Part shown: positions 11,860-37,220 of the stretch, piece by piece
Layout: each line of letters begins with the position of its first letter
Numbering within the stretch: position 1 is the first letter of the stretch
Assembly (NCBI GenBank): GCA_022009835.1
Contig: CP091726.1
Location: 17,205-81,204, forward strand
DNA length: 64,000 nt
Origin: Bacilli bacterium
GTDB taxonomy: Bacteria > Bacillota_I > Bacilli_A > RF39 > UBA660
Reading direction: 5' to 3'
Translations under genes and position numbers: made by a program
The notes under the pieces: generated by a model
Seen by the model: the letters and a program-made list of their open reading frames with translations, nothing else
What the model was told of the DNA's origin: nothing
Databases searched by the model: none

Positions 11860-12383
11860 TTATTCCTCCTCGTATATATCACTTAATAATTTTTTTAATT
11901 CTTCTTGTTCTTCAATAGTTGCTTCGTTTTTTTAGGTATTAATTTACCATGCCAGTATTCATTACCTTCTTTATCTTTATAATAAATACTATCTTCTTTT
12001 TTTATTTAATTTATTATTATATTTTTTTAAAGTTTTTGTTTATAGCCTGTATTAAAATTATCTTTAATACTTTTTTTAATTTTTAAATTTAAGACCTCTG
12101 ATAATTTAATTATACGCTTAGAATTATTTGTGCTTTTATTATCATATTCAGTCCTAATATAACCAAAAGGTGGCTAAATTACTTATACTTTTTTTGATAT
12201 AGTTACTGCTGTTACATTATAAATATCACAAAAAAATATCTATTAGTAGCCCAACAATAACCATTTTTTTCTTACAAAGACTTATTATATGAATTAATAA
12301 TAATCTTTCTAAAAAAGTTAATCTATTATCTCTTAATACGGATTTTTAAAAATAAATACATTTATGAATTCTTCTTTATCCAT
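11860..12383 (-). CDS. helix-turn-helix DNA-binding protein (mobile-element type), frameshifted
   Basis: Reconstructed ...LRDNRLTFLERLLLIHIISLCKKNGYCWATNRYFCDIYNVTAVTISKK...IRTEYDNKSTNNSKRIIKL. Confidence 0.4.
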
Positions 12384-20759: not shown

Positions 20760-20998
20760 CTCCTCGCATATATTATAACATTTAAAACTATTTTTTTCCC
20801 ATAAGGCTTTCCAACTAAAAAAACCTATTTTTCATACATAAAATTAATTTTTGATAATCGCACTGAAAATATGCTATTTATTAATTTAATTGTCAGTATC
20901 ATTAATAAATAATTACTTCTCCATAACAAAAATAATATTAGTATATAGTTATTGCTTATATATAATAGATGGCAATAAGCATAATAAAATATATATAA

Positions 20999-21290
20999 TT
21001 ATTTATTACTAACTATCCTATCTAATTTACTTCTTATAATACTTTCTTCTCTACTACCATTAGTAGTTAATCTAATTAATGGTATATTATATTTAGATAG
21101 AATATTATTTTTTTAATATATCTCTTTCTTTTTCGTTTATTATCTTCTTTATGATATTTATATCCATCTACTTCTATCACTAATAATGGTATTTTACTTA
21201 TTTTATTATATATTAAGAAATCTATATGAGTATTATGGTGAGAAGTATATTTTCTTTATTCTTCTGCTTCTAATGTTTTATTTTTTTAAT
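20999..21290 (-). CDS. DUF2726-like (PD-(D/E)xK fold) protein fragment, frameshifted
   Basis: ...HIDFLIYNKISKIPLLVIEVDGYKYHKEDNKRKERDILKNNILSKYNIPLIRLTTNGSREESIIRSKLDRIVSNK. No clear start codon. Confidence 0.45.
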
Positions 21291-21302
21291 ATATTTAAAA
21301 TT

Positions 21303-21845
21303 TTATTTATGTTTTCGTTTATATAAGTATACCCCTCCTGATATTACCCCTATACCTAAGATTGTGTTTATTAAACTATTATTATCCTTTTCATCTTCAC
21401 TATCATTATCTTCAATATTTTTACTAGTGGATATTATGCAACTTCCATCATCAATCTCTGCCTTTGGATCATAGTTGTCTGCTGATGGATTTTTACATCC
21501 TAGTACATAATATTCACAGGTTCCATCATCTTTATTTGCTGATGAATTATAGTTCTTTGCTGTTTCATCTGTGCATCCATATGTATAATAGATACAACTT
21601 CCATCATCTCTATTGGCACTAGAATTATAATTACTTGCATTTTTATCTGTGCACCCATAAGTATAAGTAACCGTTGGTGTACATGTACAACTGGGACTTA
21701 AAGTACCATCATTACAAACCAATCTTCCAGAACTACTGCAACCGCTAACACCACCATGATGAGAACAGCATCCCTTTGTTGCACTAACTTTCAATGGTGC
21801 TAATAATATTATACATACTAAAATCAATTTTGTTTTTTCCTTCAT
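21303..21845 (-). CDS. secreted, C-terminally anchored Cys-rich repeat protein (intact, 180 aa)
   Basis: Signal peptide MKEKTKLILVCIILLAPLKVSA. GCCSHHGGVSGC module. 3.5 repeats of YGCTD..A.NYNSSAN.DDG(S/T)C.Y. Acidic linker. TM plus KRKHK tail. Confidence 0.75.
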   Translation of the reverse strand: MKEKTKLILVCIILLAPLKVSATKGCCSHHGGVSGCSSSGRLVCNDGTLSPSCTCTPTVTYTYGCTDKNASNYNSSANRDDGSCIYYTYGCTDETAKNYNSSANKDDGTCEYYVLGCKNPSADNYDPKAEIDDGSCIISTSKNIEDNDSEDEKDNNSLINTILGIGVISGGVYLYKRKHK

Positions 21846-21874
21846 TAAATATCACCCTACCACAAAAAAAGACG

Positions 21875-21910
21875 CAGCACAAAAAATCTATTAAATAGAC
21901 CTGTACTAGC
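21875..21910. repeat. 36-nt perfect repeat X, copy 1, about 30 nt upstream of the Cys-rich protein start
   Basis: CAGCACAAAAAATCTATTAAATAGACCTGTACTAGC, identical to 26050-26085. Confidence 0.85.
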
Positions 21911-21972
21911 ATCCTTATTTAATTATTTTTTTAATTCTTTGAATATTTTACCATGTTTTCGTTTACATTATC

Positions 21973-22521
21973 TTAATCTTTCTTTATTAATTTAAAATCA
22001 CAATTATTGGAGTTATATAAATGGACATCATCTGTTATAGTTAATGTTTGTTTTTCTCCATTTTGATTAAATTGTAATTTTTGCTTATTGTTATAAGCTG
22101 TTCCGTTATCTGTCGCATATCCAGTATTATAATCTAACCATAAAAAAAGCATATCGCATCTGCTGTTCGAGTTGCTTCTACTTCATATGTTCCATTAGGA
22201 AAATAATAAAAATATTCTTCTTTTCCCTCATACTCCACTAATTTTTCCATAATCACCTGATGATTTATAAATTAGTTCGTATGAAACAATCGCATCAGTA
22301 TTCCTATTTTGATTTTCCTCGGTTTTCTTTACTTCATATTTTTTATTTTCTTCTTGCTTAATTATTTCGTTTTCTTTGGTTTTAGAATCATTATTTTCGT
22401 TATTTCTTTCTGGTTTTGCTGGAAAGCATATTATCCATGCAATAAGAATAATTATTGGAAGTGCTATTCTTGCAATTTTTTTAAATACTTTTTCATCTAT
22501 TGTATTAAATTTATTCCCCAA
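21973..22521 (-). CDS. hypothetical N-terminally anchored protein, frameshifted
   Basis: TM IARIALPIIILIAWIICF, then a K/E/N-rich linker, then a beta-rich end ...GYATDNGTAYNNKQKLQFNQNGEKQTLTITDDVHLYNSNNCDFKLIKKD. Confidence 0.4.
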
Positions 22522-22553
22522 TAAGTTTATAGAAAATTTGAAACAAACTTAAA

Positions 22554-22808
22554 CTAAATAAAATTGCAAAAAAATACTTTCTCCTGGATTTTTTTAGTTA
22601 TTGAAGTTAAGTAGGCTACTATTAATAGTCCACCAAATATATATAAAATTATATTCCATATTTTTTTTACAATACTCATTGTTCCTACATTCACTTCATC
22701 AGGAACTTTTGCTCTTTTTAATATTGATGTCGTACGGTGTTCCACATTTAGGACAATAAGAATAAACATCTTTATATTGGTTTTTTTACACTTTCTACAC
22801 TCTTTCAT
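22554..22808 (-). CDS. zinc-ribbon plus single-TM small protein, frameshifted
   Basis: MKECRKCKK...YSYCPKCGTPYD (CxxC...CxxC after repair), followed by TM IWNIILYIFGGLLIVAYLTSI. Confidence 0.45.
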   Translation of the reverse strand: MKECRKCKKTNIKMFILIVLNVEHRTTSILKRAKVPDEVNVGTMSIVKKIWNIILYIFGGLLIVAYLTSITKKIQEKVFFCNFI

Positions 22809-22819
22809 TTTTTTACCTC

Positions 22820-23652
22820 CTACTGATAATACCTTTCTGGAATATCATAATTTGGTTTATCTTCTATTGTTTCTTGTAGTTCTTTAGCAGCTTTTTCTAT
22901 TTGTGGATCATATTCTAATACAGACTGTTCCTCTTCGGGCTTTAACCATTTTTGTGGCACTGGGGTTGTAGATAATGTTCTTAATGTATCTACTATTCTC
23001 TGAGCATCATTTATTGTATTACTATATTTTGAACTGGATTGATCTATTGTATTTGATAATAATACAATCTCTGTATTAAATCCTTTTATATTAACGTCAA
23101 TTCCTATATGATGACATACTGGTATTTCGTTTGAAGTCGTCACTTGATTATTTTTTCCTTTAGTTGTGGTTTTACCTAAAGTAGAGCCACCAACAACTGC
23201 TCCAACCGGCCCTAAAATTAATCCACCTGCTACTGCACCACCCAGTGAAGCATTCTTCCTAGCTTTTTGATTATATGTTCCTGTAGTATTTGTAATGGTT
23301 CTAAATCCATCATTAGTTTTAATCTCTGCACCTTTTATGTCAGAAAAAATATATAGTTGACCATTTATATTTATTTTCCCTTCTGTCATATTATAAGAAA
23401 AGTTATCTCCTATTAATTTCCATCTGCTTCTTGCTATTCTATTTATTTCATTTTTCTTTCCATCTTGGAGATTCTTTAATTTGTTTTGAGCATTTTTAAC
23501 ATTATTATCATATTGTTTATCTCTATCCTTATGAATTTTTAGTTTCAACTTTATTTATGTATTTTTCTAAATTTTTTTCTTGGTTTTATACCACAATATC
23601 CGCAAAAAATGTCACCATCATCAATAATTTTTTTACATTTAACACACTTCAT
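22820..23652 (-). CDS. zinc-ribbon / glycine-zipper protein (about 275 aa if the N-terminal 33-aa piece is joined)
   Basis: MKCVKCKKIIDDGDIFCGYCG at 23652. Main ORF has GGAVAGGLILGPVGAVVGGSTLG (glycine zipper) and an acidic C-terminus. Own promoter-like region at 23660-23830. Confidence 0.5.
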
Positions 23653-23830
23653 TCCATTCACTCCTTACTACTTTTTATTTCATTTTAATTATAACATACT
23701 TTTTTTGATTATAATATCTTTTTTTGTTGTTTATCATTCTATTTTTCTTATAATATCACACTAATATTAATTTGCTTATAATGTCCAATACTTTTTTTGT
23801 TTCCTACCAACCTTAAAATATTTTTCTTAT

Positions 23831-24172
23831 TTAGTATACTTGCTGAATTGTTTTTTTGAATATTTTTTTAAAACATATATCAAAAAGTAGTAGCAAACAG
23901 CTTATTATAACCACAAGCCAATTATTCATAATAAATGTAATTAATTTAATCAATATAGAACATGCAAACCATATAAATACAAATGCTAAAAATCTTATCG
24001 TCCAGTGAGCAATAGAGCCTGCTTCTCCTCTTAATTCTGATTTACCTACAATGCCAAATGCAAGTTTAAACGCTATGAGCCCTATGATTGTCATTGCAAT
24101 ATAATTATAAATTGGATTCTTCAAATAAAAGAAAATGACGCTGTTCTTAAATCAAATATAAATTTTTTTCAT
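23831..24172 (-). CDS. small multi-pass membrane protein
   Basis: About 3 hydrophobic helices (YIAMTIIGLIAFKLAFGIV, RFLAFVFIWFACSILIKLITFI, LVVIISCLLLLFDI). Lies immediately downstream of RT2. Confidence 0.5.
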
Positions 24173-24244
24173 ATTTCACCCCTACTTCTTCTAGTCAGTA
24201 CTAAATAAAAAAATTAATATTAAATTTCTTAACCATTTAATTAT

Positions 24245-26013
24245 TCAAAAATGTATAAATTTAACATCATTATCTAACATTATTTTTGAATAAATTTAAT
24301 TTCTTTTTTTAATATCACATCTTGCATTATATTATTTAGGTCAGTTTCAAATAAAATAGTATTTTTTTAAATCCTTGTTTAGTGTGTATTTTTCCAACTA
24401 ATGCAGTTTGTATAAAATAATAACCAATATTTGCTATAATAACTAGCTTTTTTTCCAATCGTTGCTGTATCTTTTTAATTAATTCCTTTTTTTATATTTG
24501 TTAAATATTCCTTTATTTGCCTCTTATAAACACCTAACAAATTATTTTTATTAAAATATTCAAAACTTAAAATAGCTCCTAAATCACTTTTGCTCATGAT
24601 AACAAGCATATATTTTGTACTTTCATCATTACATATGTTTAATTTAATTATTAAATACGCTAACCATATATCAGTTATTTCTTTTTATATGAGAAATTCT
24701 ACTATTTCTCTTTTTTTAATCCATTTTATAATAATTCTATCTTTATCAAGTTCCGTTAAATTAAATATTTCTACAATCAAATTAAACGCATCGGGGGATA
24801 TCATATTTTGTTTAAACATCATATTAATTAAAAAAATCTAATAATATTTCTGCAGTATCGTTATCGAAATAATCTTTTGTAATAACATTCTTTTTTTATA
24901 TTTTTGTAGTAAGAATTTTTTTAACAAGTATTTACAATTACTATATTTTTATATTTTTACAGAATTATTTATTTCGTTCATTACATCCTCAATAAATTCA
25001 AGTTTATCTTCGTATGCATTTTCTTCAATTCTTTTCATCAATAAGAAAACATTCTTATTTTTGTATAGTATTTAATGATATAAAAAGGAAATTCTTCTAA
25101 TTTCATTTTTATTCATATTTAAATCCAACTTATAATTTGACAAACTTTCACTTATTAATAATCTTGTATCATTTTTCTAAACTTTCTTTTTGAATCTGAA
25201 TAAAAAAATCATAATCATCACAAAATCGTACAAAGCTTATATCTTTTTCCTTGCATTTCTGAATTATATTTCTATCAACTTTAGATATAATTATTTCTGA
25301 CAACAGACTAGAAGTATATGGTCCAATTACTATTCCTTTAGTTTCGTTTCTATTTAATGTTCTATTCAAAACATCCAAATTATCAAAAAAATTATCTTGT
25401 TAGCATCATTTTTTTAAATTCCAAGAAATTGTATGAGTATATATACTATTAAAAAAATTATTTATATCCACTCCTAAATGATAGTATTTTCCATCACATA
25501 TTTTTTGTTTATTTAGTAAATTATACTGATAATTAGGTTGTACTACGTTAGCATAGTCAAGCATTGTTGGTACCTCATCATAATCGTATAATCTTATAAA
25601 CTGACCTTCTTCAAAAGAGAATCTTGATGATGAGTCATAATTATCTGTAGCATTAACTTGCTCCTCTAATATTTCTTCATGATATTTATTTATATAATAA
25701 TGTAAGGGAATTAAAACCAAAGGATTAACTACAGAAATAATTCTATTAGCACCATTCGGTTTAGATATATATATATATCGATTGGCTCAGTTCCCTTTTT
25801 TAAACCAAATATATTGTCATTATATCCTTCAAATTCTTTAATTTTTTTCCTGCTTCAAGTATAAAATTATCATTTAATATTTCTTCTATATTATCATATG
25901 AATTATATATATCATCTAGCTTATCATACAAGTTCAAATTAGTAAAAACAATTTGGTAAATGTTTTTGTTGGAAAAAAACAAATGATTCTTTTACAACAT
26001 TAATTTCACTCAT
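24245..26013 (-). CDS. Abi/UG-class reverse transcriptase (AbiA/AbiK/DRT-like, about 590 aa), heavily frameshifted
   Basis: ISKPNGANRIISVVNPL; VDINNFFNSIYTHTISW (Abi-type motif 1/2); ETKGIVIGPYTSSLLSEIII (motif 3/4); SFVRFCDDYDFF (motif 5). The about 300-aa C-terminal part is unreadable without repair. Confidence 0.7.
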
Positions 26014-26049
26014 CTTATCACACCTACTTCTAGTTAATACAAAAAACAC

Positions 26050-26085
26050 CAGCACAAAAAATCTATTAAATAGACCTGTACTAGC
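26050..26085. repeat. 36-nt perfect repeat X, copy 2, about 35 nt upstream of the RT2 start
   Basis: Identical to 21875-21910. Confidence 0.85.
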
Positions 26086-26229
26086 GTCTTTCTTTAACTA
26101 AGTTAAGTATATCAAATTATTTTTATTTAATCAATAAATTTAGACAAATTTCTCTATACTAAAATAATATTAGTATATATCTATAGCTTATATATAATAG
26201 ATGCAATAGGCATAATAAAATATATATAA

Positions 26230-26525
26230 TTATTTATTACTAACTATCTCATCCAATTTACTTCTTATAATACTTTCTTCTCTACTGCCATTAGTAGTTA
26301 ATCTTATTAATGGTATATTATATTTAGATAGTATATTATTCTTTAATATATCTCTTTCTTTTTTTGTTTATTATCTTCTTTATGATATTTATATCCATCT
26401 ACTTCTATCACTAATAATGGTACTTTACTTATCTTATTATATATTAAGAAATCTATATGAGTATTATGGTGAGAAGCATATTTTCTTTCTTCTTCTGTTA
26501 ATAATGTTTTATCTTTTATTAATAT
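26230..26525 (-). pseudogene. second DUF2726-like fragment
   Basis: Near-identical nucleotide sequence to 20999-21290. Confidence 0.4.
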
Positions 26526-26535
26526 ATCTGAAGTC

Positions 26536-26970
26536 TTATTTATGCTTTCTTTTATACAAGTATACTCCTCCTGATATTACTCCTATACCTAAGATTGTGT
26601 TTAATAAACTATTGTTGTCTGTTTTGTCTTCATTATCATTATCATCAATATTTTTACCAATTGATATTATACAACTTCCATCATCCATCTCTGCCTTCGG
26701 ATCATAGTTGTCTGCTGATGTTTTTTTACATCCTAGCACAAAATTAGTTCTCAAATTTAATTACTTGCATTTTTATTTGTACTTCCATATGTATAAATTA
26801 CTATTGGAGTACATATGCAACTAAGGCTTAAAATACTATCGTTACAACTCAACTTTCTAGAACTACTACCGCCACTAATACCACCATGATGAGAGTGCCA
26901 TTTCTTTGTTAAACTAACCTTTAATGTTACTAATAATATAACGCATACTAAAAATTCATTTTTTTCTCCA
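26536..26970 (-). pseudogene. decayed paralogue of the Cys-rich repeat protein
   Basis: Only the last repeat plus anchor remains open (GCKKTSADNYDPKAEMDDGSCIIS...GVISGGVYLYKRKHK). Upstream part has stops and an internal deletion relative to 21303-21845. Confidence 0.7.
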
Positions 26971-36236: not shown

Positions 36237-36368
36237 GTATTAATTATACTTATTATATATAAGTATGAAATATATACTTAAAGTAGTTTATTATTGGTAT
36301 GTTATTTTTGAGTATAATAATAGTGCAATATACTTGACTTTTTATGATAGTTATAGTATCATTGTATT

Positions 36369-36483
36369 ACCGGAGAGAAATCTCGTCAGGTCGATAGCTC
36401 AATGTCGATTTTATTAAATTAAGTGTATGTTAAGTACACCGCTTGAGTTGGGGAGAGACTACTAGATAGTCTCTTTTCTTTTT
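36369..36483 (+). ncRNA. candidate about 115-nt small RNA with its own promoter and terminator
   Basis: TTGACT-17-TATCAT at 36334-36362. GAGA-GAAA-TCTC and GTGTA...TACAC hairpins. Terminator GAGAGACTA-ctaga-TAGTCTCT plus T-run at 36453-36483. No ORF. Confidence 0.25.
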
Positions 36484-37220
36484 ATGGGAATAATAGTTTA
36501 TGATCGATAATATCAATATCAGAATCAATATTTGATAATGCTCTTCTTCTAGTAGTGCCTGCGATTAAATCTGCTGCCTGCACTAAGTAACTCTTACCTG
36601 AATCTTGATATGTTAATCTTATTTCTAATTTTCCATATAATATATTTTTGTATATTATGTCATAATTAAAATTAGATATTCCATGTAGTAATTCTTCTGT
36701 TAGGCCATCTTTTAAATTATAATAACCATTACTTTTTGTAGATTGTTCATCTATATTTATTATTAATCTCACATTTTTATTTGGGTTTATTTTTTTATCT
36801 TTTATTAATTCTTCAATGGTACTTTTAATTAATCTTCTTATTGTGTAATCTATGTATCTTCCTTTTGAGGCTTTATTATTTATAATATGATTATATACTT
36901 TTTGTATTATTTATTACTAGGGCAATAGTATAATATTTACTTATATAGTTCATAATCCTTCTTTTTATGACCTTTCTTGATATTTGTATTTTTTTATTTC
37001 TTTACATTTTTTTAGTACATTCTCCTTTTTGTTTGGCCACAGTAAGAACATTTTTATTTCATTTATTATTTTACGATATTGAGTTATAAATTTATCTTTT
37101 TTTCTTGTTTTTGATAAAAAGACTATTCCTGCATATACTGATACCTTTTTCCTTTTTTGTTAATTTACCTGAATCATCTAAATTTATATATATTTCTTGA
37201 TATTCTTCTTTTTTATTCAT
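36482..37220 (-). CDS. DUF3800-family protein, frameshifted
   Basis: N-terminal EIYINLDDSGKL (DESG-like box). C-terminal ORF with YLVQAADLIAG (DUF3800 Q.AD..AG box). Confidence 0.55.

Follow-up and report, generated by a model that had tools for sequence, protein, structure and literature searches.

A Class 1 UG/Abi-type reverse transcriptase as a probable single-gene cassette in a defence island of an uncultured gut Bacilli bacterium

Introduction

Class 1 reverse transcriptases (RTs) of the UG/Abi type are defined by an RT domain to which alpha-helical, HEAT-like repeats are joined at the C-terminus (Mestre et al. 2022, PMC9226505). DRT4 forms hexamers and produces random single-stranded DNA (ssDNA) constitutively, with its own Tyr125 as the primer; the phage DNA-binding protein ORF55 shields this ssDNA from host exonucleases, and the cell dies (PMC12783706). 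DRT6 acts like DRT4, and AbiK, Abi-P2 and AbiA share the same chemistry with different priming tyrosines (PMC12783706). Here we describe an RT gene related to these systems (positions 24241–26013, minus strand) and the small genes that follow it in a 64,000-nucleotide stretch, referred to as the window, of contig CP091726.1 (assembly GCA_022009835.1, Bacilli bacterium). Related contigs and metagenome stretches are cited by locus number (L001 and so on).

A first-pass annotation made from the sequence alone had recognised an Abi/UG-class RT and had joined it to four small membrane or zinc-ribbon proteins encoded behind it as a possible new defence system. We find that the RT is, with a probability of roughly 80%, a stand-alone single-gene defence cassette, and that the small genes (called here TM117, ZnRGly and P273) are its neighbours and not its components. 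The supposed five-gene RT system was a false lead and is now removed.

Results

Repair of the RT reading frame

The window has a G+C content of ~25% and just 21 open reading frames (ORFs) of at least 150 amino acids in its 64 kb. On the minus strand between 26100 and 21900, each gene-like stretch switches reading frame. The three RT peptides quoted in the first-pass annotation lie on this strand, in the ORF fragments 25406–25720 and 25169–25378, and the RT start at 26013 is correct. The motif given there as FCDDYDFF has the true reading FCDDYDFYSDSK, the second F being a frameshift artefact.

Comparison with a metagenomic contig of the same species (L001), which aligns with the window in three blocks at 93–97% nucleotide identity, shows the nature of these interruptions. 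The RT block differs from the L001-type contig by 28 indel events, of which 26 are extra bases in the window beside A/T runs of four or more and the remaining two fall in an (AT)n repeat. Over the three blocks, runs of four are read as five in 17 of 69 cases (~25%), runs of five as seven in 10 of 28 (~36%) and runs of six as seven in 8 of 16 (~50%). The conserved flanking genes show the same run-length errors (four to five, five to seven, six to seven), and throughout the window there is a strong deficit of A/T 6-mers compared with 5-mers and 7-mers. Since the gaps are extra bases in A/T runs, the fragmentation of the RT is, as judged from these alignments, an assembly artefact and not a set of true frameshifts. 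We also considered an alternative genetic code in which TGA, TAG or TAA would encode an amino acid; ORF lengths stay abnormal under every such reassignment, the interruptions being frameshifts.

Deterministic collapse of the homopolymers is impossible as a repair because the errors are stochastic, and the frames were repaired instead by projection, with the reading frames of L001 and L051 as the reference. The reframed RT has 577 amino acids and no internal stops, and with four substitutions is 99.3% identical to an intact metagenomic protein (P0005). The case illustrates the way in which genes of this assembly are broken up by homopolymer errors. Almost every gene in the window is split by A/T homopolymer insertions, and any ORF-based reading needs homologue-guided frame repair.

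Family and fold of the RT

PADLOC matched the RT to RT_UG31 (E = 5e-50), UG30 (2e-47), Drt6 (2e-45), Drt4 (7e-43) and AbiK (2e-25). The same groups came out on top with the intact RT and two divergent homologues, RT_UG31 being first at 165–180 bits, followed by UG30, Drt6, Drt4, Drt3b, AbiK and AbiP2. E-values for the Class 1 groups ranged from 1e-50 to 1e-23, against 1e-15 or worse for the retron and group II-type models; the Drt4 models scored 94–146 bits, under UG31 at 169 bits. Pfam gave RVT_1 only, on the hand-stitched RT sequence, and no match on the intact homologue P0001. A profile built from 29 homologues ranked UG15/DRT4 first in the PDB (2e-29), followed by Drt3b, Abi-P2 and AbiK. 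D180, ETKG..GPY and FCDD (D262/D263) are invariant in the 29 homologues and are present in the reframed window RT.

The AlphaFold2 model (pLDDT 87, pTM 0.87) has an RT core with a disordered loop at residues 142–171, and residues 310–570 are modelled as all-helical, of the alpha-repeat type, with pLDDT >90; this was one of the outcomes for the C-terminus that the first-pass annotation had allowed for. In Foldseek the full-length model matched UG15/DRT4 with TM-scores of 0.62–0.72, DRT6 with 0.65/0.74, AbiK with 0.64 and Abi-P2 with 0.5–0.58; AbiA, DRT9, retron and group II RTs scored far lower than DRT4, DRT6 and AbiK. PADLOC, the PDB profile search and Foldseek all uphold the earlier assignment to the Abi/UG-class defence RTs, and by its sequence and predicted fold the protein is a Class 1 UG/Abi defence RT.

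When 1.84 billion representative sequences were searched exhaustively with phmmer, 13 RT-family proteins reached E ≤ 1e-30. Twelve of them are near full length or long fragments (246–743 bits) and one is a 115-amino-acid fragment; beyond the 13, nothing scored above ~121 bits. The family therefore appears to be small and discrete, with about a dozen clusters at 50% identity, and does not obviously fall within any large named group. UG31 is its nearest label, at the scores expected of a remote relative (165–180 bits). The nearest named homologues in genome contigs come from metagenome-assembled genomes of uncultured gut Bacilli/Firmicutes, at 40–47% identity, and a scan of IMG/VR for the RT family gave one distant match.

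Gene map of the locus

After frame repair the features of the locus are as follows.

26106–26134, minus strand: promoter-like site before the RT leader (TTGATT, 17 nt, TATACT, with TG ahead of the −10; 9 of 12 matches)
26041–26100, minus strand: conserved 5' leader, a hairpin of CGCUAGUACAGG, variable inner stem and UUUUUGUGCUGGUG, then a U tract (direct repeat D7)
24241–26013, minus strand: RT, assigned to Class 1 UG/Abi, true length 577 amino acids, in at least six ORF fragments (frame repair, profiles, fold)
23813–24172, minus strand: TM117, 117 amino acids, three hydrophobic/transmembrane (TM) segments (frame projection)
22820–23652, minus strand: ZnRGly, 275 amino acids, N-terminal zinc ribbon, long helix and PH-like beta domain with a glycine-zipper insertion
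21973–22808, minus strand: P273, 273 amino acids, zinc ribbon, three TM segments, low-complexity linker and beta-rich C-terminal domain
21866–21925, minus strand: leader hairpin again (second copy), after the P273 stop codon and before X180 (direct repeat)
21303–21845, minus strand: X180, Cys-rich secreted protein of 180 amino acids, intact as read

The four small proteins of the first-pass annotation thus reduce to three genes. Its 3-TM gene (23831–24172) keeps the start at 24172, with the end moved to 23813; the coordinates of the zinc-ribbon/glycine-zipper gene are confirmed; and its zinc-ribbon/TM protein (22554–22808) and anchored beta-rich protein (21973–22521) are a single gene, P273. 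The second transcription unit that it suggested, starting before the zinc-ribbon gene, is plausible. A promoter-like site lies ahead of ZnRGly at 23737–23708, and where the zinc-ribbon pair occurs elsewhere it comes with an upstream region of its own and with a divergent helix-turn-helix gene.

The RT-to-P273 block is flanked on both sides by a direct repeat of ~1 kb (20926–21823 and 26158–26953, 78–94% identity), which contains the gene for the 180-amino-acid Cys-rich secreted protein and a DUF2726-like fragment. The gene copy in the upstream repeat (26972–26539) is diverged, with several cysteines lost and ~100 nt missing.

Genomic contexts of the RT family

Eight contexts of the RT family were examined, one of which (L015) is too short to judge. 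The first comprises the window and the near-identical contigs of its species (L001–L004), in which the RT is followed by TM117. In L001–L004 this is followed in turn by a frameshifted zinc-ribbon stub, an AlwI restriction–modification (RM) system and a KAP NTPase. L001 thus retains an intact RT although it lacks P273 and has only a frameshifted remnant of ZnRGly. The other contexts are different. An RT homologue of 68% identity by BLASTP (85% in the tblastn alignment) is followed by an integrase on the opposite strand (L005/6), one of 56% (69% by tblastn) by a type I RM system (L007–9) and one of 44% (53% by tblastn) by a McrB-like AAA_5 gene (L010–12). A homologue of 47% lies between recG and an integrase (L013), one of ~42% is followed by an Abi_2 gene (L014 and L186–9), and one of 40% sits amid envelope genes (L016).

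None of TM117, ZnRGly and P273 is found beside the RT in these six contexts. When all RT loci were searched by tblastn with the repaired small proteins, TM117 was found in the first context only (1/8), and no full-length ZnRGly or P273 in the other RT-family loci. Co-occurrence of the RT with the small genes had been set beforehand as the test of the proposed system. RT homologues of 37–85% identity occur elsewhere without them and, as described below, the small genes are also found without the RT; we therefore regard the locus as independent modules lying side by side. These comparisons show the RT gene to be a cassette that can be exchanged for others; the defence island around it is variable, and the cassette lies between a conserved promoter/hairpin leader and TM117.

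TM117 and the island backbone

We found 90 homologues of TM117. It has no match in Pfam or PADLOC (E ≤ 0.1 or 0.01; TMEM43 falls below threshold at E = 0.087) and none in PHROGs; with all three blank, an assignment to SLATT or another named family was rejected. In other loci TM117 follows a Dcm RM system and a 529-amino-acid gene (L046–49), an 800-amino-acid AAA_21 protein and an 89-amino-acid gene (L050–53), an AAA_21 and a 102-amino-acid gene (L061), or an AIPR and an SLFN-like helicase (L062–64). The N-terminus of the 800-amino-acid protein looks PHP-like by eye, with no Pfam PHP match. Directly after TM117 in L061–64 come an HTH_36 gene and a large serine recombinase, homologues of which are present in the window at 12351–12036 and 11628–10020. 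As TM117 occurs behind four unrelated cassettes and beside HTH_36/recombinase, it is, on gene order, a backbone gene of this family of islands or elements and not RT-specific.

The loci L050–53 belong to the species of the window and occupy the same chromosomal site. Their TM117–ZnRGly–P273–X180–DUF2726 block is identical, but with the 800-amino-acid AAA_21 protein and the 89-amino-acid gene in the place of the RT behind the same leader (seen in L051). Homology with the window resumes 12 nt upstream of the TM117 start codon.

TM117, HTH_36 and the large serine recombinase form an adjacent backbone in the related elements of other species and are ~12 kb apart in the window. The window's insert between TM117 and HTH_36/recombinase holds defence cargo, namely the zinc-ribbon pair, X180, RM genes and a second RT (RT1).

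The ZnRGly/P273 pair

ZnRGly has 124 homologues and matches Pfam PF27000 (PH_gly_zipper). It is modelled (pLDDT 83) with a zinc ribbon, a helix of 50 residues and a beta domain into which a disordered glycine-zipper segment is inserted. The fold has no significant match in the PDB and gives weak matches in BFVD to uncharacterised prophage "SHOCT" proteins. The pair of ZnRGly and its partner is conserved in L054–57 (74% and 46% identity) and recurs in L059–60 with a different C-terminal domain in the partner, so that the zinc-ribbon/3-TM part of the partner is kept (58%) and the outer domain varies. Each time there is a divergent 84-amino-acid HTH_3 gene, and the elements that carry the pairs encode a serine recombinase or Mob_Pre; in one case an nSTAND3 protein is adjacent. 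The RT and TM117 are both missing from these elements. A more distant ZnRGly homologue stands alone among housekeeping genes. With the patterns used, the IMG/VR scan found no relatives of ZnRGly, and the literature search on a zinc-ribbon/glycine-zipper module found nothing relevant.

The shared promoter/hairpin leader

A 60-nt direct repeat (26100–26041 and 21925–21866) bounds the RT-to-P273 block exactly; these copies of the leader explain the boundaries of the block. In its long version the leader has, in order, the promoter-like site (26134–26106), the hairpin, the U tract, a ribosome-binding site and the ATG, and in the alignment the promoter-like stretch is kept in every long copy. At the RT, the hairpin and U tract lie ~30 nt before the start codon, with an exact motif match at 26085–26054. 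The window holds two matches to the core pattern, where chance would give 0.00.

The leader is not peculiar to the RT. In the window's species it also precedes a Upx-like 1202-amino-acid gene, the 800-amino-acid AAA_21 gene, X180 and GajA; in another lineage it precedes the 68% RT homologue, the inner stem having compensatory changes, and a diverged form is found before the 42% homologue. The core pattern was found in at least 120 metagenome stretches (L065–L184), and among the 127 matches listed ~16 look like chance. Among the matches listed there are 78 unique bona fide variants, all with a hairpin of at least 13 bp and a U tract (−13 to −20 kcal/mol) and together with 16 different complementary pairs in the inner stem; 57 of 79 metagenomic copies have an extended −10 some 19–23 nt ahead of the hairpin. 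The leader (CGCUAGUACAGG, variable stem, UUUUUGUAUUGGCG, U run) lies 20–45 nt upstream of at least 91 distinct ORFs from at least 48 unrelated families, largely of defence type, in gut metagenomes. These include AriA-, PtuA- and GajA-type ATPases, AbiLi, KAP and YobI NTPases, Mrr, RelA_SpoT, OLD-TOPRIM and DUF2726. In L076, L083, L090, L099 and L113, which are from other lineages, the −35 region of the leader promoter has tandem GTGTCAT repeats that might be an operator recognised by a common transcription factor.

Rfam has no family matching the leader and finds nothing at the RT locus, and the literature search on the element gave nothing relevant. A non-coding RNA or retron was rejected as an explanation of the repeat, there being no Rfam family and the same element standing before unrelated genes. 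We read the element as a shared promoter/leader of defence cassettes; it might terminate transcription conditionally, stabilise the 5' end, serve as a handle for recombination, or do several of these at once.

It is a tentative idea, to which we give somewhat less than an even chance, that the RT is one of dozens of interchangeable defence cassettes behind this shared cis-element, on an integron-like platform in gut Bacillota. The element would consist of the extended −10, a hairpin with an almost invariant 5' arm (CGCUAGUACAGG; part of this arm's conservation follows from the pattern used in the search), a co-varying inner stem and the U tract. Its role might be conditional termination that silences toxic genes until relieved by an antiterminator or by infection, or a homology handle for exchange, or both. 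If the leader is a regulatory or recombination signal of this kind, common to many defence genes, it would serve as a sequence tag by which further defence cassettes could be found in gut Bacillota, and would help to study how toxic defence genes are restrained.

Defence-island surroundings

The RT belongs to a defence island, and its host is an uncultured gut bacterium of low G+C content. The window contains Avs2, a retron-type RT and RM genes, the sister contigs an AlwI RM system, a KAP NTPase and Gabija, and other members of the RT family neighbour type I RM, a McrB-like AAA_5 protein, Abi_2 and integrases.

Directly upstream of the RT cassette is a large P-loop protein (~30300–27223, minus strand), which PADLOC identifies as Avs2 (AVAST type 2, 378 bits). 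RT1 (~13838–12668, minus strand) has the retron-type RT_VI as its best PADLOC match (4e-25) and adjoins the HTH_36 gene and the large serine recombinase. Rfam finds a DUF3800-I RNA at 36362–36486 on the plus strand (65.6 bits), overlapping the 3' end of a DUF3800-like ORF on the opposite strand (36910–36485); the relation between the strands looks odd.

Discussion

A possible mechanism

By analogy with the solved systems, the RT would be a self-sufficient single-gene anti-phage system in which the RT domain is fused to C-terminal alpha-helical repeats. Homology with DRT4, DRT6, AbiK and Abi-P2 suggests that it probably assembles as a hexamer. It may prime on its own tyrosine, with Y142 and Y159 in the disordered loop 142–171 as candidates, and would make random ssDNA without a template; from DRT4, DRT6 and AbiK we infer such protein-primed, template-independent synthesis. 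A phage factor, for example an ssDNA-binding protein that protects the product, might then turn the product toxic and lead to abortive infection.

Alternative explanations

Some observations weigh against the reading of the RT as a stand-alone Class 1 defence gene of this kind. The PADLOC scores are modest (~170 bits), and for that reason no specific UG group is assigned. The residue aligned with DRT4 Y125 is Y159, which is Y in just 20 of the 29 homologues (F in 8, M in 1), so the priming site is uncertain; a better candidate, by its conservation, is Y142 of the same disordered loop, a tyrosine in 27 of 29. In the window's species the RT is always followed by TM117, 68 nt on, on the same strand and with no recognisable terminator between them, and co-transcription with some functional coupling may occur there. 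An extension of this, in which the RT cooperates with the downstream membrane proteins and TM117, with or without ZnRGly/P273, is an accessory pore-type effector, would fit the placing of all four genes on one strand between two copies of the leader's terminator-like hairpin and the retention of RT–TM117 in all of the near-identical contigs L001–L004. Some Class 1 RTs are known to have accessory TM proteins (PMC9226505), and the arrangement would resemble the SLATT proteins beside AbiA, UG23 or DRT3. We nevertheless consider such cooperation improbable. TM117 is present in one of the eight RT contexts (L015 being too short), lies elsewhere behind unrelated upstream cassettes, adjoins an HTH_36/serine-recombinase backbone that is also in the window, and has no SLATT, Pfam or PADLOC match, and the RT of L001 is intact despite the ZnRGly stub and the missing P273. 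The contexts of the RT family do not support the earlier proposal that the small proteins are RT effectors or form a new joint system with it.

Two further explanations concern the state of the RT and the nature of the zinc-ribbon pair. Taken as read, at least six ORF fragments with stops in each frame suggest a decaying pseudogene, whose frameshifts and in-frame stops would be real. This is very improbable, as the 28 indel events are accompanied by only four amino acid substitutions with respect to the intact 577-residue orthologue, nearly all of the indels are insertions in A/T runs, the conserved flanking genes carry the same errors, 6-mers are depleted and long ORFs few throughout the window (21 of at least 150 amino acids in 64 kb), and no alternative genetic code restores the frames; on the indel pattern we reject real pseudogenisation. 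ZnRGly/P273 might be an independent two-gene mobile membrane module, for surface or superinfection exclusion or for an abortive-infection-type action at the envelope, that is parked beside the RT. The recurrence of the pair with HTH_3 on mobile elements (L054–57, L059–60), the constant zinc-ribbon/3-TM half and varying outer domain of the partner, and the weak structural and PHROG links to prophage "SHOCT"-type proteins would all fit. We think this rather unlikely as it stands, since the pair has no functional annotation, PADLOC match or solved structural analogue and, with the patterns used, no IMG/VR relatives, the distant homologue is solitary among housekeeping genes, and the function proposed is a guess. 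Our preferred reading remains that of a self-contained RT cassette with independent genes beside it.

Comparison with known systems

Where DRT2, DRT9 and retron-type RTs have a structured non-coding RNA template, Rfam finds none at the RT locus, and the sole conserved structure at the RT is the terminator-like hairpin that is common to unrelated genes. The loci of AbiA, UG23 and DRT3 with SLATT proteins are like the window in having a Class 1 RT followed on the same strand by a small protein with two or three TM segments. They differ in that TM117 has no match to SLATT, is not kept with the RT and follows unrelated cassettes. UG31 and UG30 give the best PADLOC profiles for three divergent members of the RT family, at 165–180 bits and covering most of the profile; these are, however, the scores of a remote relative, and the family is isolated in the exhaustive search. 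Both groups are predicted, and untested as defence genes (Mestre et al. 2022, PMC9226505).

AbiK and Abi-P2 (PDB 7R06, 7R07 and 7R08) share the overall fold of the RT (TM-score 0.5–0.64), and their protein-primed, template-independent chemistry would be expected for it by homology. The identity is 17–18%, their priming tyrosines are in an N-terminal fingers loop, and their carriers differ, being a lactococcal plasmid and the P2 prophage. The RT would add to this AbiK/DRT4/DRT6 class of template-independent defence polymerases a small untested lineage from uncultured low-GC gut bacteria, for which P0001 and P0005 are intact references usable for cloning.

DRT4 (UG15) and DRT6 (UG12) differ from the RT in that identity is just ~20% and the PADLOC Drt4 and Drt6 models score under UG31; the priming Tyr125 is absolutely conserved in DRT4, whereas the aligned position here is not strictly kept. 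The hosts also differ, the RT being from low-GC gut Bacillota, DRT6 from Sphingopyxis and DRT4 from Neisseria, Campylobacter and Helicobacter (PMC12783706). DRT4 and DRT6 are nevertheless the best matches of solved structure, both in sequence (2e-29) and in fold (TM-score up to 0.74), and like the RT they combine the RT domain and the C-terminal alpha-repeat in one polypeptide of ~500–580 amino acids, encoded by a stand-alone gene in defence islands.

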